Source: Sulfurospirillaceae bacterium (GTDB lineage: Bacteria; Campylobacterota; Campylobacteria; Campylobacterales; Sulfurospirillaceae). From it: a stretch of 64,000 nucleotides of DNA. Each line of letters starts with the position of its first letter. Position 1 is the first letter of the stretch. The notes below the pieces were generated by a model. That model was not told the origin of the DNA. It searched no databases and was given only the letters and a program-made list of their open reading frames with translations. Of this stretch, positions 15,640-52,389 are shown one piece after another. The position numbers were made by a program, and so were the translations under genes. The stretch covers positions 288,001 to 352,000 of the forward strand of contig JAWVXD010000001.1 in the NCBI GenBank assembly GCA_033723415.1, given 5' to 3'.

Positions 15640-15694
15640 AGATAACGTTTGATTTAAATTAAATCAAATATTTTATCCTTAATCTATCTTATCT
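15640..15694 (-). repeat. degenerate attC-like remnant at distal end of array
   Basis: Minus strand AGATAAG-ATAGATTAAGGATAAAATATTTGATTTAATTTAAATCAAAC-GTTATCT; AAC changed to AAG; shares sequence with the 59387-59455 site. Confidence 0.5.
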
Positions 15695-15730
15695 CGTTTT
15701 AGTTAAAACTACAAAATGCACTAGGGTGAC

Positions 15731-16279
15731 TTATCTCTCTTCCAAGGATTTGTTGTCTTCTGGATATTTAAAATCTAAATATGTGAATCCAAACTTACTT
15801 TTTAATCCAAAAATATCTATTTTTTGTCCTTTGTGTAATTTTAAATGTCTATTGCCTTTAAAGACATATACCGTATTAAATGGCTGGTTATAGTTTTTAA
15901 TTCTGATCTCTTCCCAAGCACCTCGCCTCATGACATGTTCGGAGACAACTTTTGTAATTTGTGTTTTTAATATATAAGGTTTTTTATCTGAAAGCAAATG
16001 TAAAACGACTATTGTTTCCCTATTGAAAAATAAATACAAAATAAATATCCAAAACACAATACCTATGACTGTTTTATAAAGCTTACCCTTTTTATTTTTA
16101 TACATCAATATCGCGCCATATATGTAAAATAAAGAGACAAAAGCTATAAATACATACTGCCATAAAGTATCTGTATATACTTCTTCAATGATAATATGAG
16201 AAAAAAAGTCAACGAGCAGAGTTATGGCTATCAAAATATAAAATAACGCAAAAGCTGGTAGGAAAATATATTTTTTTAT
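15731..16279 (-). CDS. hypothetical membrane protein (last cassette); start uncertain
   Basis: ORF track start is TTG 16234; the frame stays open to ATA 16279, which lies 7 nt after AGGA; about three hydrophobic segments. Confidence 0.6.
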   Translation of the reverse strand: MKKYIFLPAFALFYILIAITLLVDFFSHIIIEEVYTDTLWQYVFIAFVSLFYIYGAILMYKNKKGKLYKTVIGIVFWIFILYLFFNRETIVVLHLLSDKKPYILKTQITKVVSEHVMRRGAWEEIRIKNYNQPFNTVYVFKGNRHLKLHKGQKIDIFGLKSKFGFTYLDFKYPEDNKSLEER

Positions 16280-16295
16280 AATTTGTTCCTTTTAA

Positions 16296-16364
16296 AGATA
16301 ACGTTTAAAATGAGCCGATGAATTGCACGCAGGGCAATTTATTGGCTCCTCTGATTTGTTAACT
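16296..16364 (-). repeat. attC site (69 bp)
   Basis: Minus strand AGTTAAC...GAGCCAATAAATTGC-CCTGCGT-GCAATTCATCGGCTC...GTTATCT; overlaps the AbiV-like stop; stem closes with G-T pairs on the + (bottom) strand. Confidence 0.88.
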
Positions 16365-17036
16365 TTTTGCATGATGTACTTTATTCCATTTTCTAGACTT
16401 CAAACTTGTTTTGTATGACCATGTAAAAAGTATTGGATAGTCATTTTCATTAATAATGCCATCCATTTCCCAAACACCCCAATATCCATCATTTTTTGTA
16501 ACCAAATCATGTACCTCAAGAAATTCATGATTTAAGAGAGAAATCATCTGTTTTGCATTTGCTAGTTTTATTTTTTTCGTAGGAATCGACACCCTACTTG
16601 AAGTGTCAATTTTTCTCTTTGAACGCTCAAGTCCCACATAAATTGCTTCTTGCTTTTGAATTTCTAGTTTTTTCTCTTCTACCTTAGATACGAATGCAGG
16701 AGCATAGTCAAATATTTCACTTGCAATAAATGCGAATTGCTTTTTCGGATGCAAATACAATAGTTTTAACCAGTTTTGTTCAAATGTTACATACTCCTCG
16801 TATTCTGCATCACCTTCTTTTGGGAACCCATTATTTGTAATTGTTGAATAGTAATAATGGTCTACCCATTTAGCTTTTGCAAATTCTTCTAAAGCCAATA
16901 CTGAAAGTTGAAAAGCTGATGGAAAAGATTCATTGTTGTAAAGTAGGATTGAATCTTCATGCAATCGTAATGCATTACGCAAGGATTCTTCTGCAATCTT
17001 TTTGAACTTGTATTGACTTAATCCCTTCAAATTCAT
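16359..17036 (-). CDS. AbiV-family (HEPN) abortive infection protein
   Basis: SLRNALRLHEDSILLY...AFQLSVLALEEFAKA...HPKKQ...KQEAIYVG fits the AbiV/HEPN pattern; GAGG SD. Confidence 0.8.
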   Translation of the reverse strand: MNLKGLSQYKFKKIAEESLRNALRLHEDSILLYNNESFPSAFQLSVLALEEFAKAKWVDHYYYSTITNNGFPKEGDAEYEEYVTFEQNWLKLLYLHPKKQFAFIASEIFDYAPAFVSKVEEKKLEIQKQEAIYVGLERSKRKIDTSSRVSIPTKKIKLANAKQMISLLNHEFLEVHDLVTKNDGYWGVWEMDGIINENDYPILFTWSYKTSLKSRKWNKVHHAKS

Positions 17037-17052
17037 TACCTCTTTCTTGTAT

Positions 17053-17122
17053 AGTTAACGGTTGTCGTGAACAATAATTCTCCCGCTAGGGTAAATTATT
17101 GGTCTCCTCGTACTTGTTATAA
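17053..17122 (-). repeat. attC site (70 bp)
   Basis: Minus strand TTATAAC...CAATAATT-TACCCTAGCGGGAG-AATTATTG...GTTAACT. Confidence 0.88.
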
Positions 17123-17677
17123 ACCTTTTAATTTATAAGCATAGTGACTATTTTTAAAAGTTTCATTTACTAAGCCTTTTCTTGGTGATGTTTCAATGTC
17201 TTTGGACTCTATATCAATGTTTTTAAATTTAATTTTTTCATTAGTTTCTACCATAGCTAAAAAATCTTCTTTTGAAGATGGTTTTAATATATCTATTAAT
17301 TCATCAATAAATTTTGATTGTGAAAATTTCTTATTGCTTTCAATACAAATTACTTCTTTTATTAAAATGCCACCAAAACTTGTTCCATTGCCAAAAGTAA
17401 AATCTAAACCTTTATGCTTATAGTTTGGATTTATGCTAATTTTATGAAGGTACCATACTGCATTCAGTAATTGCCTGTTTTTTGCACGTTTGTATTTTAA
17501 AGCATGACTGTTTTCATCTTGATGATTAGTATTATTATAATAGTAAAACTCAATATTTGAGATTCTATATTTTTTCGAATTTACTAATAAAATATGTTCA
17601 TTCAAAATTTCATTTGCAATTCTGTAGAAATCTTGTTCAATTGTTTTTATACTTGTATCATTTATTGTTAAGTCCAA
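17117..17677 (-). CDS. hypothetical protein, probable AAG/MPG-like DNA glycosylase fold
   Basis: YRISNIEFYY..D..SH..WYLH..GGILIKEV..IETSPRKGL parallels MPG motifs GRIVETEAY..D.ASH..AYVY..AVLIRA..PRIGI; TTG start after AAGGA. Confidence 0.55.
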   Translation of the reverse strand: MDLTINDTSIKTIEQDFYRIANEILNEHILLVNSKKYRISNIEFYYYNNTNHQDENSHALKYKRAKNRQLLNAVWYLHKISINPNYKHKGLDFTFGNGTSFGGILIKEVICIESNKKFSQSKFIDELIDILKPSSKEDFLAMVETNEKIKFKNIDIESKDIETSPRKGLVNETFKNSHYAYKLKGL

Positions 17678-17692
17678 GAAGTTCCTTTTTGT

Positions 17693-17776
17693 TTATAACG
17701 GGGGCGCGGGTGAGTGACTGCCGTTGGAAAATCTTTGGATTTTCCAACGGTTGATTGCTCCTCCCGCTTGTTATCT
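17693..17776 (-). repeat. attC site (84 bp) of ORF-less cassette, copy A
   Basis: Minus strand AGATAAC-AAGCGGGAGGAGCAATCAACCGTTGGAAAATC...GATTTTCCAACGGCAGTCACTCACCCGCGCCCCC-GTTATAA. Confidence 0.85.
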
Positions 17777-17851
17777 GGTGCGAAGCTCCGGATGACTAGC
17801 GGGTGTTCAACCTGCGCCCCCGTTATCTCGGATGCGTAGCGTCCAAGATAA
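17699..17851 (-). mobile_element. ORF-less 153-bp structured cassette, copy A
   Basis: Begins (G)TTATCT, matching its own AGATAAC; no credible ORF; similar to 21504-21652. Confidence 0.8.
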
Positions 17852-17917
17852 CGTTTAAAATGAGCAATCAAAAAGCCGCTTGCGGGTTTTTGATTGGAGT
17901 GCAAGGTTTTGTTATGC
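17846..17917 (-). repeat. attC site (72 bp)
   Basis: Minus strand GCATAAC...CAATCAAAAACCCGC-AA-GCGGCTTTTTGATTG...GTTATCT; the distal 22 nt (CTCATTTTAAACGTTATCT region) match the 16296 site. Confidence 0.88.
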
Positions 17918-18679
17918 TTTTTTATTAAATAACAACTCAGTTTTTTTGGGGTCATAGCCACTACACTGGACACAATGTAAACAAAACAGAGGCGATTCAC
18001 CATATGTAAACTTGTTGAACTCAAAATCATTTTTCAAAGATTCTAGAATCAATTCTTTCGAATATGGAATCTTTGTTATTCTTGTATATACCATTTCTGG
18101 ATCTTTAACAACATCAAATGTGACTAAATCAATCTCATGAACTATTTTGGTTGCAACAACATTGTTATATTTTTCATTTTCTATATGGTCACATTCTTCA
18201 AAATTGCGTAAACATATGTTACATGTTCCATCAATACTGTTACAAGTAACTTCATTGTAGATATTGTTTGTGATATGCTCACATTCCAAAGGTTCTTTAC
18301 CACAGATTGAACATAAATATTTTTCAGTACCTCTCATACTGAAACCAAAATCATGATGTAAAAGTATATTTGGGCAGTCAGAGTAGTAGTTTTCACCATC
18401 AAATTTACATTGGCATTCATATTTTTCACATAATATTTCTCCAATTTTATGCATTTTTTTCGATATTTCTACTCTTTTGTCTCTATAAAACCAAAAACAA
18501 TTTAGATACTCTTTTAAAACGGATTGCAAATCTTTTTTAACATCATCACTTTTTTTGTTATTAATTTTTTCAATTAGGGCATTTACCTTTATTGAGCTAT
18601 CTTGCGCGACTTTTGGTGGGCTGTCACTATTTATTATCATCATGATTGCTTCAAATGCTGGCTGTTCTGATTTATGCAT
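17912..18679 (-). CDS. Cys/His-rich zinc-binding hypothetical protein with prohead-protease-like motifs
   Basis: Two tandem CxxC-x6-CxH-x5-Y units flanked by GFSMRG and LVTFDVVKDP; start overlaps the upstream stop. Confidence 0.6.
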   Translation of the reverse strand: MHKSEQPAFEAIMMIINSDSPPKVAQDSSIKVNALIEKINNKKSDDVKKDLQSVLKEYLNCFWFYRDKRVEISKKMHKIGEILCEKYECQCKFDGENYYSDCPNILLHHDFGFSMRGTEKYLCSICGKEPLECEHITNNIYNEVTCNSIDGTCNICLRNFEECDHIENEKYNNVVATKIVHEIDLVTFDVVKDPEMVYTRITKIPYSKELILESLKNDFEFNKFTYGESPLFCLHCVQCSGYDPKKTELLFNKKA

Positions 18680-19113
18680 TAGAAATCTTTTAGTGAGTCA
18701 AGTATAGTTTTAATCTCATTTTTATCACCTTCAATTTCTATTTCCACATATTTCCCATCTTTCTTTTTTTTTGTAAATCTTAATTTAATTATTGATTGAG
18801 TGTCAAAATTGTTTTTTATCCAATCATAAATAAAGCTCGACAATATTGAAAATGGAATACCAATGATTAAAGGTAAGATGACAGTTGCGTCTCTTAGAGA
18901 TAAATATTCATAACTTTCTCTCTTTACAACTATATTATTGACTTGATTTTGTTTTAGAACTTTATGTATATCAGGTGTGTACTCGTTGAGAATATCACTG
19001 CTTTCTGAGTATCCTTCTGGCATGATAAAAATTCCATTTTCTGTAAACTGAATATTTCTTTTCTTTAAAGTTTCAGCCACTTCATTAATATCAATGGTTA
19101 TTTCTTTAATCAT
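18679..19113 (-). CDS. small hypothetical protein with one hydrophobic segment
   Basis: VILPLIIGIPFSILSSFIYDWI segment; AAGGAG/AAGGA SD; first gene of a two-gene cassette. Confidence 0.75.
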   Translation of the reverse strand: MIKEITIDINEVAETLKKRNIQFTENGIFIMPEGYSESSDILNEYTPDIHKVLKQNQVNNIVVKRESYEYLSLRDATVILPLIIGIPFSILSSFIYDWIKNNFDTQSIIKLRFTKKKKDGKYVEIEIEGDKNEIKTILDSLKDF

Positions 19114-19140
19114 TTCCTTGCTCCTTTATTTCAACTCTTA

Positions 19141-19197
19141 GCATAACGGTTGACTTCACCAACAGGATTACCTGTTTGGTGCTAGGATTTGTTAGCT
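19141..19197 (-). repeat. attC site (57 bp)
   Basis: Minus strand AGCTAAC...CACCAAACAGG-TAAT-CCTGTTGGTG...GTTATGC. Confidence 0.88.
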
Positions 19198-19198
19198 T

Positions 19199-21481
19199 TT
19201 ATCTTTCAAAAAGATCGTCAATATCATTTGAAAGTAATTGACGTTCTCTATATCTATCTTCATCATAACCATCACCTTGACTTGAAAAATATGAATTAAT
19301 TAGACTGTCTATGTCAATGGAATCAACAATATCATCCGAATTAATATTTATTGTATCGGTGTCAAATTCTATAACCAAATCATCAATGAAGTCATGCAAA
19401 ACATCTTTAATTGATGATTCATCTATATCAAAATCATAGTAATCAAGTGGACTTCTTGTAATGTACGCTGAAATATCTATTTCTGAATGGGCGAAGTCAG
19501 ACAATGCATCTATTAAAGCATCTTGAAGACTATTTTCAAAGTCTGTTATGAATGTCTTATCTGTTAAATTCAAATTGTTAAATATTTCTATTATAAGTGG
19601 AAGATCATCAATTTCATCAATTGAAGTACTGTTTAGTAGTTCTTTTAAATCTATTTGATAATTAAATTCTTTTGTTGCATATACTAATAGTTTTAGCAGA
19701 TCAGTGAAATATATCCCATTATTTGAAACTATATCTATAGTATTTAAAAATGCTTTTATTTTATTATCAAATTCAACTTTATGATCTATATATTTGTCTC
19801 TTATAATTAGCAATGACATACTAAGGAAATATTCATTTTTATTGTCCTTAATATCATATTCCTGAAACAAATAACTAAGGATTTCTTGATAAGTTTGTTT
19901 ATCTATAAAATTATTTTTTTCTAAACTAATTAAATTTGAAATTGATGATTTTGTTTGAAGAGATAAATAAATAAGTTTCAAAAGTTCAATATCTCCTTTA
20001 TATCTATTCATTATGAAATCTGCCAATGATGGATTGAAAAGAGTGTAATTTATGTTACTAGGAGATTGCATATTTCTATTGACAAAGTATTTCACTGTAG
20101 TCTTTATTACATTATTGAACTGATTGTTGATATTGCTTGTAGAAGTGGCTTTTGTGATTTTATTGAGATAGTTATACGATTCATTTAATAACTTCTCGTC
20201 AATACTATTGTTATTAAAAACAATAAGCAAAATTATATTTCTGATAAAATCATCACTTTGACAATCAAATGTATGACTCCAGACCTCTGATGGATTACTT
20301 AAAATACTTAACACATAATTCCAAAAGTTTGACGGCTCTATATCTTCAAAGTTGTTTTTGTTTGTAATGAATGCAATAAGTCTTGGATTGAAGTTTTTAT
20401 GCTTAATAATTTGCATATATCTTCTGTTTTCGTAGATCACATCAATAAAAGATTCAGGTAAAGAACTAAACCAAATATGGTTATATAGTATTTCAGCTTT
20501 ATTAAAATCTGTAAGTCCATCAATTGTCAGGACAAACTCATTTTGATGAATATTTTTATTTTTAAAAATACTACTAATCATATATGCTTGATTGATTATG
20601 TTTGTTCTACTAGTTAAAATAAATTTTTTAGTGCTATCTTTTTTTACTCTGCTAATAAATTGCATAATACTAGAATCATGTTTATGCTCAATGGCATTTA
20701 AAAAGTTACTTCCTAAAAAATCATCAAAGTAAAATACTTGTTTTGTATCTTTGGAGTAAATATTTTCTACTTCTTCTATATCTTTATTAATTAGATAGAA
20801 CTTGTAACCTTGGCTTGAATAAAAGTAACATAAATTTTCTGTTAAAGTGGTTTTTCCTATCCCAGGCTCACCTGTAATTATTAATGCATTAGATTCTTTT
20901 AATATCTCAAGCGCATTTTTATGATTACTAGTATTTACATATAGATGTAGCTTTTCATTTATATCTTCTAGATAACTTTCACTTCTTCCTTCAATAGCAT
21001 TATTTAGTAATCTCATTAATACATTTGTACTACTCAACCATAATTTATAATGATTTTTTTCAATATCAGGAAACTTTTTTAATAAATCATTTAAGTCTTC
21101 CTGTCCATAAATATCATTGTCATTTTTGATAAATGGAGTAAATAGATTTTTAATAGTTTTTTTATTCTCAGAAGATAATGGTAATGAGGTAATAAAATAA
21201 TAGTTTTTTGGTTTTAATAGCTTGACCTTTTCAACTTCATTAATACCTTTATTATTTTTCCTTTTTAGAGATGATATTAATCCTTGAAAACCTGTCTGTA
21301 AATAATGCTTGCACTGAATTATATCTTCTAACCCATTGTTATTGTAATATCGTCCATCTATCCCTCTGTCGCGCCCAGCCTTAAACCGTTCAAATCTTTT
21401 ATTTTTATCTGTTGAAAGTATGTCTATTGATAAGTTTTCAAACTCTTTATCATTTAAACTTGAAAATGTGTAATCAACCAA
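19199..21481 (-). CDS. Mrr-like restriction endonuclease domain fused to a STAND-type (nSTAND3-like) P-loop NTPase
   Basis: EFENL..D..GRDRGID..IIQCKHY (PD-QxK nuclease), Walker A GEPGIGKTT, Walker B VFYFDDFLG, ILTSR, FNPRLI; acidic C-tail. Confidence 0.8.
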   Translation of the reverse strand: MVDYTFSSLNDKEFENLSIDILSTDKNKRFERFKAGRDRGIDGRYYNNNGLEDIIQCKHYLQTGFQGLISSLKRKNNKGINEVEKVKLLKPKNYYFITSLPLSSENKKTIKNLFTPFIKNDNDIYGQEDLNDLLKKFPDIEKNHYKLWLSSTNVLMRLLNNAIEGRSESYLEDINEKLHLYVNTSNHKNALEILKESNALIITGEPGIGKTTLTENLCYFYSSQGYKFYLINKDIEEVENIYSKDTKQVFYFDDFLGSNFLNAIEHKHDSSIMQFISRVKKDSTKKFILTSRTNIINQAYMISSIFKNKNIHQNEFVLTIDGLTDFNKAEILYNHIWFSSLPESFIDVIYENRRYMQIIKHKNFNPRLIAFITNKNNFEDIEPSNFWNYVLSILSNPSEVWSHTFDCQSDDFIRNIILLIVFNNNSIDEKLLNESYNYLNKITKATSTSNINNQFNNVIKTTVKYFVNRNMQSPSNINYTLFNPSLADFIMNRYKGDIELLKLIYLSLQTKSSISNLISLEKNNFIDKQTYQEILSYLFQEYDIKDNKNEYFLSMSLLIIRDKYIDHKVEFDNKIKAFLNTIDIVSNNGIYFTDLLKLLVYATKEFNYQIDLKELLNSTSIDEIDDLPLIIEIFNNLNLTDKTFITDFENSLQDALIDALSDFAHSEIDISAYITRSPLDYYDFDIDESSIKDVLHDFIDDLVIEFDTDTININSDDIVDSIDIDSLINSYFSSQGDGYDEDRYRERQLLSNDIDDLFER

Positions 21482-21503
21482 ATTATTCCTTAGTACTGTT
21501 GTA

Positions 21504-21586
21504 AGCTAACGGGGGCACGGGGGAGTGACTACCATTGGTAAACCTTTAGGTTTTCAATGGCTGATTGCTCCTACCGCGTGTTATCT
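21504..21586 (-). repeat. attC site (83 bp) of ORF-less element, copy B
   Basis: Minus strand AGATAAC-ACGCGGTAGGAGCAATCAGCCATTGAAAACC...GGTTTACCAATGGTAGTCACTCCCCCGTGCCCCC-GTTAGCT. Confidence 0.85.
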
Positions 21587-21652
21587 GGTGCGAAGCTCCG
21601 GATGACTTGCGGGTGTTCAGCCAGCGCTCTAGTTATCTCGAATGCATAGCGT
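21504..21652 (-). repeat. second copy of the ORF-less structured element, at the head of the array
   Basis: Colinear with 17693-17842, roughly 85% identical by eye. Confidence 0.85.
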
Positions 21653-21668
21653 ATTTATTAATGCTAAT

Positions 21669-21674
21669 ATTATA
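21669..21674 (-). promoter_or_regulatory. candidate -10 box (TATAAT) driving the cassette array
   Basis: Perfect TATAAT on the minus strand just upstream of element copy B; AT-rich context makes a chance match possible. Confidence 0.35.
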
Positions 21675-21884
21675 ATTAGATAATTCTTATATATAGTATA
21701 AACACAATTTTATGTAGTATTTAAACTACAATATAAAGTTTAGTATTACTTTTTAGCCTAGATAAACTATTGTTTTGTGATAAAAAGACATTGATTTTAA
21801 GAAATATTTTGCAATAAGATAACAAGTTACTTGATATTTACTCAAATATAATATCAATAAACAACTCCAAAGCTATGATAAAAA

Positions 21885-21973
21885 TTATAGTATAATTCAA
21901 TTAAAAAAGACTGGATACCTATACTTTTTCTGAAAAAATATCCTACATCTTATCATCCTGACTCCTATATTTA
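21885..21973 (+). pseudogene. decayed duplicate of the promoter and first ~18 codons of the 22911 sensor kinase
   Basis: TTATAGTATAATTCAATTAAAAAA and ATCTTATCATCCTGACTCCTATATTTA are shared with 22875-22965; ATG is ATA here, with frameshifts. Confidence 0.8.
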
Positions 21974-22838: not shown

Positions 22839-22910
22839 CACTTCTAGGACATGAAGAAAAATTAGACTCCAAATTTATAGTATAATTCAATTAAAAAATA
22901 TTGGATAAAT

Positions 22911-24419
22911 ATGCTATTTTCAGAGAAGAACATACCGAATCTTATCATCCTGACTCCTATATTTACGATCATCATACTTACGTCTCTCATCACATTTTTC
23001 TTTGTGGATTCTCAGTACAAGTACTTTAAAGAACAAAGCGTGACCTTGGAGAAAAACTATATACAAAAGCAAAGAACGCTACTTAAAAACGAAGTCAACC
23101 GTGTGATCAATTACATAGCTTTTCATAAAAAAAATCTAAAAAATTTAAGTGACAAAGAACTCAAAAAGACGATAGCTGCCTATATCGAGACTATTAGGTA
23201 CGGTGACAACGGCTATATCTGGGTACATGACACGAACTATTATCTCGTCGCGCATCCATTTAGGAAGGATATGATCGGTAAATACGACATCAACTTAAAG
23301 GATGAATCTGGTGCATTTATAACCAGAGCGTTTATCAATATAGCCATCAGCAAGCCTGAAGGCGGTTTTTTGGAGTATTATTGGAAGAAGCCGAGCAACG
23401 GCAAGGTTGAAAAGAAGCTTGGATTCTTGAAGCTTTACGCACCATGGAAATGGGTCATCGGAAGTGGTTTGTACATGGATGACATCTCACACTCTATCAA
23501 GATCGAGAAAAAGCACCTGGAAGAGAAGATCAACAAACAGATCCAGGTCATCATGCTCATAGCTTTTACGTTTATGTTCCTAGTCGGTATGATCTCATTT
23601 GTGATCTCTAGAAATATCATCAATGCTCTTAATTCTTACAAAGAAAAAGTCAGAGACAATGAACTCACACTAAAGACAAAGATCGCAGAGGCGATTAGCG
23701 AATCGCAAAAAAAAGATCAAGCGCTATTGTACCAGTCCAGACTCGCTCAAATGGGAGAGATGATCAGTATGATCGCACACCAGTGGAAACAGCCTCTCAG
23801 TGAAGTGAGCGGGATCTTCATGGAACTGGAGACTATAGGCAAATTTGACGAACTTGATAAAAATTATGTCTTGGAATGTGCAAAAGACGGAGATAAGATC
23901 ACAGAGTACATGAGCAGGACGATAGAAGACTTTAGGAATTTTTTTAAACCTGACAAGAAGAGGGAGAGATTTGATATACAAACTGCATTAGATGAGACCT
24001 TAACACTGGTTGATGCTTCGATTAAAAATTCACATATCCAAATAATTTCCGATATTTCTGAGCACATTTATATAGAAGGATACCCAAATGAATATTCCCA
24101 AGTCATCTTAAATATATTGATGAATGCCAGAGATGCACTGATATCGAGAAATATAGCAAACCCGGAGATTCATATAAAAGTGTATCAGAAAAAGGATCAA
24201 GCGATCTTAGAGATCATTGACAATGCAGGAGGGATAGACGAAGAGATACTAGATAAGATCTTTGATCCATACTTCAGCACCAAAGACAATGTAAACGGTA
24301 CAGGTTTGGGACTGTACATGTCTAAAATGATCATAGAAAAAAGCATGAACGGAAGATTGAGCGTACAAAACACCGATAGCGGTGCAAGTTTTAAAATAGA
24401 AGTAAAGATATGCAACTAG
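22911..24419 (+). CDS. Cache-domain sensor histidine kinase
   Basis: Two TM segments around a Cache-like domain (YIWV, YYWKKP, WVIGSGLY); H-box IAHQWKQPL; NARDA, DNAGGI, GTGLGL. Confidence 0.93.
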   Translation: MLFSEKNIPNLIILTPIFTIIILTSLITFFFVDSQYKYFKEQSVTLEKNYIQKQRTLLKNEVNRVINYIAFHKKNLKNLSDKELKKTIAAYIETIRYGDNGYIWVHDTNYYLVAHPFRKDMIGKYDINLKDESGAFITRAFINIAISKPEGGFLEYYWKKPSNGKVEKKLGFLKLYAPWKWVIGSGLYMDDISHSIKIEKKHLEEKINKQIQVIMLIAFTFMFLVGMISFVISRNIINALNSYKEKVRDNELTLKTKIAEAISESQKKDQALLYQSRLAQMGEMISMIAHQWKQPLSEVSGIFMELETIGKFDELDKNYVLECAKDGDKITEYMSRTIEDFRNFFKPDKKRERFDIQTALDETLTLVDASIKNSHIQIISDISEHIYIEGYPNEYSQVILNILMNARDALISRNIANPEIHIKVYQKKDQAILEIIDNAGGIDEEILDKIFDPYFSTKDNVNGTGLGLYMSKMIIEKSMNGRLSVQNTDSGASFKIEVKICN

Positions 24420-50198: not shown

Positions 50199-50322
50199 TT
50201 TTTACCCTTCTCACATAAATATTATAAACAAATTGAATAAATTTTTTAAGATTTTACTCTTTTTTTAATGTAAGTAAGATAAAATTGTTTATAATTCACT
50301 GCAAGAGGATAAAGGAGGCAAA

Positions 50323-51279
50323 ATGCAACAAGTATATGACGTTATAATTATAGGTAGTGGCCCGGGTGGCGTTGGTGCAGCTATAGAATCAAAAGTTCTA
50401 GGGCTTGAAAAAATTCTTGTTATTGAAAAAGGCGATAACCATTCTCAGACAATTAGAAAATTTTATAAAGACAATAAACGAGTAGATAAAGATTATCAAG
50501 GACAAGAGGTTGATATCAAAGGAAATGTTCAATTTCTAGACGGTACAAAAGAGAGTACTCTTGATTACTTTGATCAACTCATAGATAATGAAGAAATAGA
50601 CGTAGTTTTTAATAGAGAAGTAGAAAAAGTAGAAAAACAAGATGGATTATTTGCAGTGACGACATCTAAAGCAGGATATTTAGCTAAAAATGTGATAGTA
50701 GCTATAGGACGCATGGGAAAACCAAATAAACCTAGCTATAAAATTCCGCCTTCAATCAAACAAAAAGTAAATTTTAATCTAGAGAGATGTACACATGGAG
50801 AAAAGATATTAGTCGTAGGAGGAGGAGATTCTGCATCTGAATACGCTGTTTATCTTGCAAAAGAAAATACTGTAACGTTAAATTATAGAAAAACTGAATT
50901 TTCTAGATTAAACAGTATCAATGCAAAAGAGTTAGCCGATGCAAACGGAGAAGAGAGATTGCGTTTAAGACTAGGTGTAAATATACTAAGTCTTGAAAAT
51001 GAAGGTGGATCGGTTAAAGTAACTTACGATGACGGATATAGCGTTGTTTACGACAGAATTATTTATGCAATTGGCGGGACAACTCCTGTAGATTTCTTGA
51101 AAAAATGTGATGTAGAATTAGATGAAAACAAACAACCGATACTAGATCAAAATTTTGAAACTAACAATAAAGGTTTATACATAGTCGGAGATTTGGCAGT
51201 TGACAGTGGCGGTAGCATTGCTATAGCATTAAATCACGCTTTTCATGCCGTAACTCATATGCTGCAAAAGGATAAGTAA
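50323..51279 (+). CDS. thioredoxin-reductase-like FAD/NAD(P)H oxidoreductase (FqrB-like), copy 1
   Basis: GSGPGG, VGGGDSA, GLYIVGD; no CxxC. Confidence 0.8.
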   Translation: MQQVYDVIIIGSGPGGVGAAIESKVLGLEKILVIEKGDNHSQTIRKFYKDNKRVDKDYQGQEVDIKGNVQFLDGTKESTLDYFDQLIDNEEIDVVFNREVEKVEKQDGLFAVTTSKAGYLAKNVIVAIGRMGKPNKPSYKIPPSIKQKVNFNLERCTHGEKILVVGGGDSASEYAVYLAKENTVTLNYRKTEFSRLNSINAKELADANGEERLRLRLGVNILSLENEGGSVKVTYDDGYSVVYDRIIYAIGGTTPVDFLKKCDVELDENKQPILDQNFETNNKGLYIVGDLAVDSGGSIAIALNHAFHAVTHMLQKDK

Positions 51280-51311
51280 GCTTTATTCTTTAGAGATATT
51301 TTATATATTTA

Positions 51312-51360
51312 TAAAGCCAATATAAAAAAGGATAAATTTTGCCTTATTATATTGGCTTTA
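51312..51360 (+). terminator. stem-loop between the tandem reductase genes
   Basis: TAAAGCCAATATAA...TTATATTGGCTTTA 14-bp inverted repeat. Confidence 0.55.
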
Positions 51361-51432
51361 AAAAAAATTTTACTGCTTTATCAACATAACTAAGGTAAAA
51401 TCCCAACGATTATACAAGACAAGGAGTTTAAA

Positions 51433-52389
51433 ATGCCTCAAATATATGATTTGATAATAGTTGGTGGCGGTCCTGGTGGCATAGGGGCTGCAGTAGAGTC
51501 AAACGTGCTTGGCATAAAAAATATACTTTTAATTGAAAAAGGGGACAATCACTCTCAGACAATTAGAAAATTTTATAAAGAGCATAAAAGAGTAGATAAA
51601 GACTATAAAGGTCAAGTTGTTGAACTAGCAGGAAGTATAGAATTTAAAGACGGCACAAAAGAGAGTACTCTTGATTATTTTGATTTTCTCCTAGACAATG
51701 AACAGATAGACGCTGTATTTAACAGTGAAGTAGAGAGTATTGAAAAATCTGACGGCACCTTTTTAGTTACGACTTCAAATGCCGGATATGTTGCAAAAAA
51801 CGTAATAGTTGCGATCGGTCGCATGGGGAAACCAAATAAACCCAGCAATTATAAAATACCGCCTTCAATCACACAAAGAGTAAATTTCAACCTTGATAAA
51901 TGCGTTAAGGGAGAAAAGATCTTAGTTGTAGGAGGAGGAAATTCTGCTGCTGAATATGCAATTGAATTAGCCGAAAACCATATAGTTACATTAAATTATA
52001 GAAGAACAGAGTTCAATAGACTAAACGATAAAAACCTGGAAATGTTAAACGAATACAATGGACACGAAAAACTAAGACTTAGATTAGGATGTGACATCAC
52101 ATCATTGGAAAATGAAGAAGGACTTGTAAAAGTAAATTTTACTGATGGTTACTACACAATATACGATAGAGTTATATACGCGATCGGTGGAACTACTCCT
52201 GTTGAATTTTTGAGAAAATGCGGAATTGAGATGGATGAAAAAAATGAGCCGATATTTGATGAAAATTATGAAACTTCTACAAAAGGATTATTTGTAGGCG
52301 GCGACATCGCTGTAAGAAACGGTGGAAGTATCGCTATAGCTCTAAACCATACTCATCATATTGTTACTTATATTTTAAATAAAATATAG
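51433..52389 (+). CDS. thioredoxin-reductase-like FAD/NAD(P)H oxidoreductase (FqrB-like), copy 2
   Basis: GGGPGG, VGGGNSA; colinear paralog of 50323-51279. Confidence 0.8.
   Translation: MPQIYDLIIVGGGPGGIGAAVESNVLGIKNILLIEKGDNHSQTIRKFYKEHKRVDKDYKGQVVELAGSIEFKDGTKESTLDYFDFLLDNEQIDAVFNSEVESIEKSDGTFLVTTSNAGYVAKNVIVAIGRMGKPNKPSNYKIPPSITQRVNFNLDKCVKGEKILVVGGGNSAAEYAIELAENHIVTLNYRRTEFNRLNDKNLEMLNEYNGHEKLRLRLGCDITSLENEEGLVKVNFTDGYYTIYDRVIYAIGGTTPVEFLRKCGIEMDEKNEPIFDENYETSTKGLFVGGDIAVRNGGSIAIALNHTHHIVTYILNKI

Follow-up and report, generated by a model that had tools for sequence, protein, structure and literature searches.

The window, that is, the whole 64,000-nucleotide stretch of Sulfurospirillaceae DNA that was analysed, carries a cassette array at 15640-21680 on the minus strand, flanked by ackA and an outer-membrane gene and containing an nSTAND3/Mrr-like gene, an AbiV-HEPN gene and genes of no assigned function. 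At each ordinary attC listed below, the inverse core equals the core left by the preceding site. This bookkeeping of R'' against core places crossovers between 17851 and 17852 and between 17698 and 17699, so that a gene-less element stands out as a separate cassette of 153 bp, with the plus strand of the window as the bottom strand. The features are as follows, with G/TT denoting a crossover between G and TT.

17699-17851, minus strand: gene-less cassette, copy 1; 153 bp between two G/TT crossovers, the flanking inverse cores matching the adjoining cores
17693-17776, minus strand: own attC of copy 1; canonical fold when alone, pfold 0.68
17693-17715 within it, R' side: R' at 17693-99, 9-nt spacer, L' at 17709-15, then the variable stem
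17757-17776 within it, R'' side: L'' at 17757-64 with extrahelical C17761, 5-nt spacer, R'' at 17770-76
17777-17803, plus strand: GCGAAGC loop and anti-left arm; helix P3, which pairs with R'' and its spacer
17804-17821, plus strand: TGTTCAA linker and anti-right arm; outer helix P1, which pairs with the R'-L' arm
17822-17852, plus strand: terminal hairpin P4; core copy, GCGTAGC loop, and the core common to the upstream attC or attI
17846-17917, minus strand: ordinary attC of the upstream two-gene cassette; R'' matches the core at 19141-47
21510-21651, minus strand: copy 2, decayed, first unit of the array; outer stem and terminal hairpin broken
21652-21680, minus strand: attI remnant (AATAAATA, core lost); TATAAT at 21669-74, no adjoining intI
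19141-19197, minus strand: attC of the nSTAND3 NTPase/Mrr-like cassette (19199-21481); R'' matches the core after copy 2
17053-17122, minus strand: attC of the 186-aa cassette directly behind copy 1; R'' GTTATAA matches TTATAAC at 17693-99
16296-16364, minus strand: attC of the HEPN_AbiV cassette (16359-17036)

The genome is assembled in 17 contigs (completeness 100), and a profile search of it gave no IntI above the TIGR02249 cut-off, leaving the array without an integrase; its three tyrosine recombinases resemble XerH and two phage types. With attC-bounded cassettes, an attI remnant and no IntI in the assembly, the array resembles a CALIN (an attC cluster without integrase), a term that covers the array and not the gene-less element. 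The motif of the attI remnant also occurs about 240-290 nt from intI in relatives, and a promoter scan of the remnant found no full sigma-70 site. Along the contig the GC skew is slightly positive (0.014 around the window), too weak to assign the lagging-template strand.

The stretch 17699-17851 is a true integron cassette, both of its ends being G/TT crossovers. In the window and in relatives the element is bounded by such crossovers after attI or an attC, the flanking R' and R'' match at 7/7 positions in 13 of 19 family cases, and the inverse core R'' is complementary to the element's own first bases in 84/86 variants at positions 4-5. GAT-core elements carry an ATC inverse core (L190, L442). 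The initial annotation saw no credible ORF here; two ORFs do overlap copy 1 (17557-17754 plus, 17668-18030 minus), the longer of them with no Pfam match, while the lengths of the family run from 152 to 160 in single steps and hence no reading frame is kept across it. The annotation's two colinear copies lie where it placed them, with 85.7% identity over 147 nt. Its count of two falls short: the genome holds seven, all inside cassette arrays, of which three are near-intact (-50.6 to -53.1 kcal/mol) and four are damaged, namely the decayed copy 2 of the window, one hybrid and two with deletions of 114 and 65 bp. Nor is copy 2 an equivalent unit, since its three-way fold is gone (-21.4 kcal/mol, z = -0.96) and its third hairpin is lost. 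In the array at C1:4.7-7.7 kb, element and genes alternate four times. The other array ends (G000:C1:455-1300) in a hybrid site that joins the left arm of an ordinary attC to the body of an F-type element; this site is split by a Y1/RAYT-like transposase gene with GGGGACAG inverted repeats on either side. Near the third array (G000:C1:79998-81494) lies a 498-aa ORF whose start we take to resemble retron-type reverse transcriptases.

Two mutually exclusive folds of the bottom strand, one canonical and one locked, are both conserved in the family. As for the canonical fold, R'/R'' and L'/L'' pair and an extrahelical base stands on the R''-L'' arm; this extrahelical C is present in 86/86 parsed variants while the neighbouring bases covary, and 117 of 121 ordinary attCs in these arrays have the same extrahelical base. 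The central spacers depart from the norm of 5-6 unpaired nt per arm given in the available part of PMC5027507, as the R'-L' spacer of the E type measures 9 nt (83/86) or 8 nt. R'' has GTT in 85/86, whereas its partner in P3 drifts (AAC in 31/86), and the fact that R'' tracks its own core despite the drifting partner points to pairing in the excised circle. Both compensatory changes reported earlier (CCGTTG/CAACGG to CCATTG/CAATGG, and AAATC/GATTT to AAACC/GGTTT) are present, and both fall in the variable terminal stem of the attC.

The locked fold is the three-way structure that had been proposed, in which 17695-707 pairs with 17814-26 and the true inverse core is trapped; this was recovered as the predicted minimum for copy 1, at -51.8 kcal/mol (z = -10.4), with 0/200 shuffles as good. 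Across the family 94.6% of its cells are paired and 11 pairs have changed on both sides, with 0/500 shuffles and no slid control as good. The outer helix P1 is 97.5% paired and covaries at columns 6-8, three pairs at positions unpaired in the canonical fold, whereas P3 has 91.8% of its cells paired with 5 pairs changed on both sides, and P4 is Watson-Crick in 325/340 cells over its first 10 pairs (one mismatch in copy 1). RNAalifold returns the locked fold unprompted, with two-sided change in 27/54 pairs. Homologues and covariation, whose absence would have told against the initial annotation, do exist, and the family bears out its structure-selected, non-coding unit of an attC plus an inverted mini-attC. 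The mismatches on the bottom strand are G.T in 249 cells at 21 positions, as against A.C in 9 cells at 2 positions. Deamination of a frequently single-stranded strand can also give an excess of G.T, and template switching can homogenise inverted repeats, so the covariation does not prove selection; nor are kin independent.

All energies are equilibrium predictions for DNA free of SSB and IntI. On this footing the canonical fold does not dominate: the locked fold is predicted to win by about 14 kcal/mol, the canonical fold costs 8-20 kcal/mol in 34/34 E variants and 13-26 kcal/mol in six other units, and the excised circle is predicted to be locked harder still (17-37 kcal/mol, median 24, n = 45). 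The pfold, in Loot's definition, falls from 0.68 for 17693-17776 to 3e-4 when the stretch runs to 17805 and to 1e-11 for the whole unit, at which the recombinogenic fold is not populated at equilibrium. In the accessible text of Loot 2017 (PMC5371416) and Mukhortava 2019 (PMC6393395), attC recombination hinges on how probable the canonical fold of the bottom strand is, and the former reports no excision between sites at pfold 3e-3 and 8e-6. The low-pfold attCs described in the same portions have rival folds internal to the site and natural pfolds of 1e-5 to 1e-7, in contrast to the gene-less element, where a dedicated, covarying sequence outside the site takes a site of 0.68 when alone to about 1e-11.

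The third hairpin, said to capture the core of the neighbouring attC, exists in copy 1, and its grip is weak because the hairpin and the end of the outer stem compete for one GTTAT. The predicted availability of the neighbouring R box is 0.16 with the element and 0.12 without it in one calculation, and 0.19 against 0.30 in another; family-wide it is about threefold lower (median 0.07 vs 0.20; lower in 20/25).

The element is known from 6/61 genomes of the family and 30/401 Campylobacterales genomes by BLAST, the latter count scoring two candidates per genome. Matches of a pattern scan fall in Sulfurimonas, Sulfurovum, Sulfurospirillum and Arcobacteraceae, those outside Campylobacterota being mostly chance matches, and a stricter scan gave at least 139 metagenome stretches. 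The E type, to which most of the counts above refer, comprises 88 full-length non-identical variants of 152-160 nt, 86 of them parsed. Two further types, F (186-192 bp) and G (178-183 bp; 2 found with a G-type query over 401 phylum genomes), have the same plan with different arms and the canonical 5/6 spacers. One gammaproteobacterial genome and three of Desulfobacterota type have this architecture in unrelated sequence: among 70 intI loci from the class of an Alteromonadaceae record (G623) it was found twice in G778, at attI and behind an attC, and among 90 loci from the phylum of a Thermodesulfobacteriota record (G624) as full units in G925 and G1025 and as contig-end pieces in G1049. These two scans covered intI flanks and thus speak of presence and not of frequency. 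A first structural scan of the two lineages, over 30 + 30 intI loci with 1.5-kb flanks, had contained no full element, and longer flanks gave them; a search of 100 relatives did not recover the G1049 element, and plasmid and phage collections contained no element match.

In relatives the element adjoins attI linked to intI. IntI matches occur in 78/401 genomes, and 70 intI loci were reduced to 48 readable ones (6 duplicates, 12 without an attI motif in range or too short, 4 ending at the site). Here attI reads TATAAT...AATAAATAG with the crossover before the TT that follows, about 240-290 nt from intI. The heads are 33 gene cassettes, every one beginning with GTT, and 15 structured gene-less units, of which 4 have non-GTT cores (GAT, GTC or GGT) with the hairpin kept. 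Elements followed 15/48 attI sites, compared with 12 of 95 internal attCs followed by an element or remnant (hand count over 28 longer loci, picked for the length of their contigs), a first-position enrichment with p = 0.012 in which related genomes are not independent. Elements at attI with GTC, GGT, GAT or GTA cores and a compensated hairpin were seen at L178, L183, L189, L190, L203, L065, L014 and L442, GTA being the core in L203, L065 and L014. Several attI-plus-element heads can occur in one genome, as at L011, L014 and L016 (all in G003) and, in the source genome G000, at window 21652 and G000:C1:7740, the last two both without intI and with a damaged core.

Regarding mobility, eight gene-cassette families are found behind the element and also behind a plain attC or attI, parting at G/TT, two of them at 100% identity (from 132 cassette starts behind an element, with self-matches and element-type rows dropped). 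The second copy in G925 sits alone at a G/TT inside a glycosyltransferase-like frame, between positions 131 and 133 of Pfam PF00534, with the halves in frame. From these varied neighbours and the solo insertion of a related element, the units appear to move independently of the cassettes beside them. Among 105 full-length contexts, 70 lie behind an attC of the same orientation, 24 behind attI and 11 outside these patterns, with no inverted element by eye. Tandems of E followed by F and of F followed by E exist (L065, L269), and none of E with E was seen, a kind that assemblies would collapse. No element-circle joint was present in the contigs of four runs tiling or touching the array, contigs being unable to show absence. 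The genes behind the element are not clearly enriched in defence functions (17/66 vs 10/66, p = 0.19). Two identical 64-bp deletion forms, from which the canonical attC is missing, share one array (L146, L147). A 61-bp form whose mini-attC is turned to the normal orientation stands ahead of one and the same gene at attI in L051 and inside an array in metagenome contig L304, so that hitch-hiking takes place as well.

The reading that we prefer, at a probability of roughly 0.55, is that of a selfish, self-locking mini-cassette that is recombinogenic only transiently; of the three roles offered in the initial annotation, the best fit is a selfish mini-element borne on an attC and equipped with a conformational switch. 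Its 69-base cargo, which complements the two arms of the unit's own attC as well as the core at the site in front, would refold that attC into a non-recombining three-way junction, and the locked fold is predicted to dominate once the whole unit is single-stranded. According to the open text of a review (Vit 2022, PMC8946536), IntI captures attC hairpins as they extrude; since on the bottom strand the attC lies 5' of the anti-arms, IntI could catch the canonical fold in a transient window before the anti-arms are free. Self-excision from within an array also requires the site located 3' of the anti-arms, in which case the lock would already be exposed and excision would thus be suppressed most, and events with a double-stranded attI or with the cassette behind the element would not require exposure of the lock. 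The net effect would be an easy-in, hard-out ratchet, in which IntI inserts the unit and rarely removes it, so that copies would accumulate at attI and between gene cassettes; fitting with this, identical copies occur in runs, copies have decayed in the integrase-less source genome, and defence genes show no clear enrichment behind the element. Against the self-locking selfish reading stand the 9- or 8-nt R'-L' spacer and the integration of a locked circle, which would be a puzzle unless IntI holds the canonical fold, together with the roughly threefold size of the predicted block on the neighbouring attC and the hitch-hiking of the short deletion forms. IntI1-3 tolerate GWT cores, as far as the available literature describes, and the GTA, GTC and GGT cores at attI, beyond GWT, suggest long residence rather than mobility. 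Somewhat short of even odds, in our estimate, is the wider proposal that these units are cross-phylum minimal integron parasites, the smallest integrase-mobilised elements, which would control their own recombination through strand displacement in cis at a single-stranded DNA site, a DNA switch, and could cap attI, even with non-GTT cores, turning double-stranded entry into a kinetically gated, single-stranded one.

The enrichment at first positions, the contrast between gene-cassette heads (33/33 GTT) and element heads (4/15 non-GTT with the hairpin kept), and the lower predicted availability of the upstream attC in 20/25 cases would also be expected of a domesticated brake, a unit that hosts keep to damp shuffling, cap attI and guard neighbouring cassettes from loss. 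Such a role is unlikely as the main account, although it and the selfish reading are not mutually exclusive: the roughly threefold effect on the neighbour, which lends only slight weight to the earlier idea of a decoy tuning adjacent cassettes, compares with 10 orders of magnitude on the own site, two thirds of attI heads are without an element, defence genes show no clear bias behind it, and, since attI recombines double-stranded, P4 would require cruciform extrusion. A slightly smaller chance is given to the locked form being itself the integrase substrate, that is, a cargo-free site whose outer stem is perfect, forming an unbroken rod in the circle, and which is recombined with neither unpaired spacer nor extrahelical base. 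It is the equilibrium form both in line and in circle, its R' AAC pairs with the second GTT in 32/34, the 64-bp forms recur, and, from the available part of Nivina 2016, some attCs tolerate the loss of all extrahelical bases. However, the invariant extrahelical C and the second inverse core that tracks the core would be left unexplained; in the literature as far as accessible, a paired spacer lowers recombination and sites without extrahelical bases lose their strand choice, yet 0/105 full-length contexts are inverted. The L253 gene cassette, closed by a branched body with a matching R'', speaks for such a substrate, but it is one case in 163 and explicable by a deletion between two ATAAC.

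A structured RNA, either the 5' leader of an array transcript or a small RNA, earns little credence, even though the TATAAT just before attI would put a first-position copy at the 5' end of a transcript, gene-less cassettes with promoters or sRNAs are known, and the top strand folds well too. The pattern of wobble pairs points to the strand complementary to the transcript, which is the more stable one in 34/34 even with RNA parameters, and the ncRNA option of the initial annotation suffers from this bias as well as from the Rfam search it had suggested, in which covariance models gave only chance-level matches or none. Moreover, copy 1 has no minus-strand match to a sigma-70 promoter (promoter activity being a prediction) and no terminator, and the head copy of the window array is decayed; an antisense RNA from the element is still conceivable. 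Least probable of all is a neutral by-product, an inverted attC duplication kept complementary by template switching. The cargo does indeed repeat the cassette's own attC in inverted form with a deletion, and among the copies one often meets deletions, hybrids and an inversion, but the four-helix plan recurs at similar size in three lineages whose sequences are unrelated, G.T pairs stay imperfect instead of being perfected, and decay follows the loss of IntI in the window genome.

Other identities were set aside. A RAYT/REP repeat does not fit, as a Y1/RAYT-like gene lies near only 4 distinct places among the loci examined and the own-genome copies are all in arrays. The outer inverted repeat around two hairpins recalls a retron, but its ends are integrase crossovers, and the element is no part of attI, for 33/48 heads have a gene cassette directly at G/TT. 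Nor does it belong to a known family of long branched attCs, which the initial annotation had allowed for, since the branched body closes a gene-bearing cassette in 1/163 non-edge contexts.

Selfish DNA in or beside attC sites is represented by group IIC-attC introns and IS1111-attC elements, and hairpin repeats by RAYT/REP; the window element differs from all of them in being non-coding and in having integrase G/TT crossovers as its ends. Non-coding soil cassettes with inverted repeats were reportedly described by Holmes and colleagues (2003), which could lower the novelty of the element. ORF-less cassettes are documented in Vibrio (Boucher 2006, PMC1382264; Blanco, bioRxiv 10.1101/2023.11.21.568050), Treponema (Tansirichaiya 2019, PMC6557892) and Xanthomonas (sRNA-Xcc1), and Boucher 2006 already proposed a selfish element or regulator. 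Within the accessible text of these sources, they share with the present element an attC without a gene and are often paralogous, their body being a promoter or sRNA, whereas the body here is 69 nt and wholly antisense to its own attC and the upstream core. No description of such an own-attC antisense architecture was found in the open literature, including the available portions of PMC8876359, PMC5371416, PMC5027507, PMC11511950, 10.1101/2023.11.21.568050, 10.1101/2022.09.11.507474, PMC3053210, PMC8946536, PMC8618304, PMC1382264, PMC6557892 and PMC6393395.

A gene-less cassette with a conserved self-locking design is thus real, widespread and apparently undescribed. Gene-less cassettes are common and mostly unexplained, and tests so far concern promoter and sRNA roles, to which this family would add a third, testable one, the cassette as a recombination site with its own antisense lock. 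As about a third of the readable Campylobacterales attI heads are taken and the arrays are rich in anti-phage genes, the element could shape array turnover. If true, this would be a natural case of site-specific recombination governed by a single-stranded DNA switch with two states, and it raises the mechanistic question of how a site predicted to be shut is inserted in the correct orientation.

Some further observations concern the attCs and the surroundings of the array. A 417-aa gene cassette at L253:164-1560 has a branched element body as its attC and an R'' equal to its own core, which may hint at attC swapping between cassettes. Long (about 125 bp), AT-rich ordinary attCs form a family in arrays of vent Campylobacterales (L244, L253, L261, L269 and others). 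Within the window, repeated promoter-region segments lie about 990 bp apart around the outer-membrane gene (21881-21973 and 22871-22965), and two 318-aa paralogues with a DNA identity of 70-77% stand in tandem at 50320-52389.
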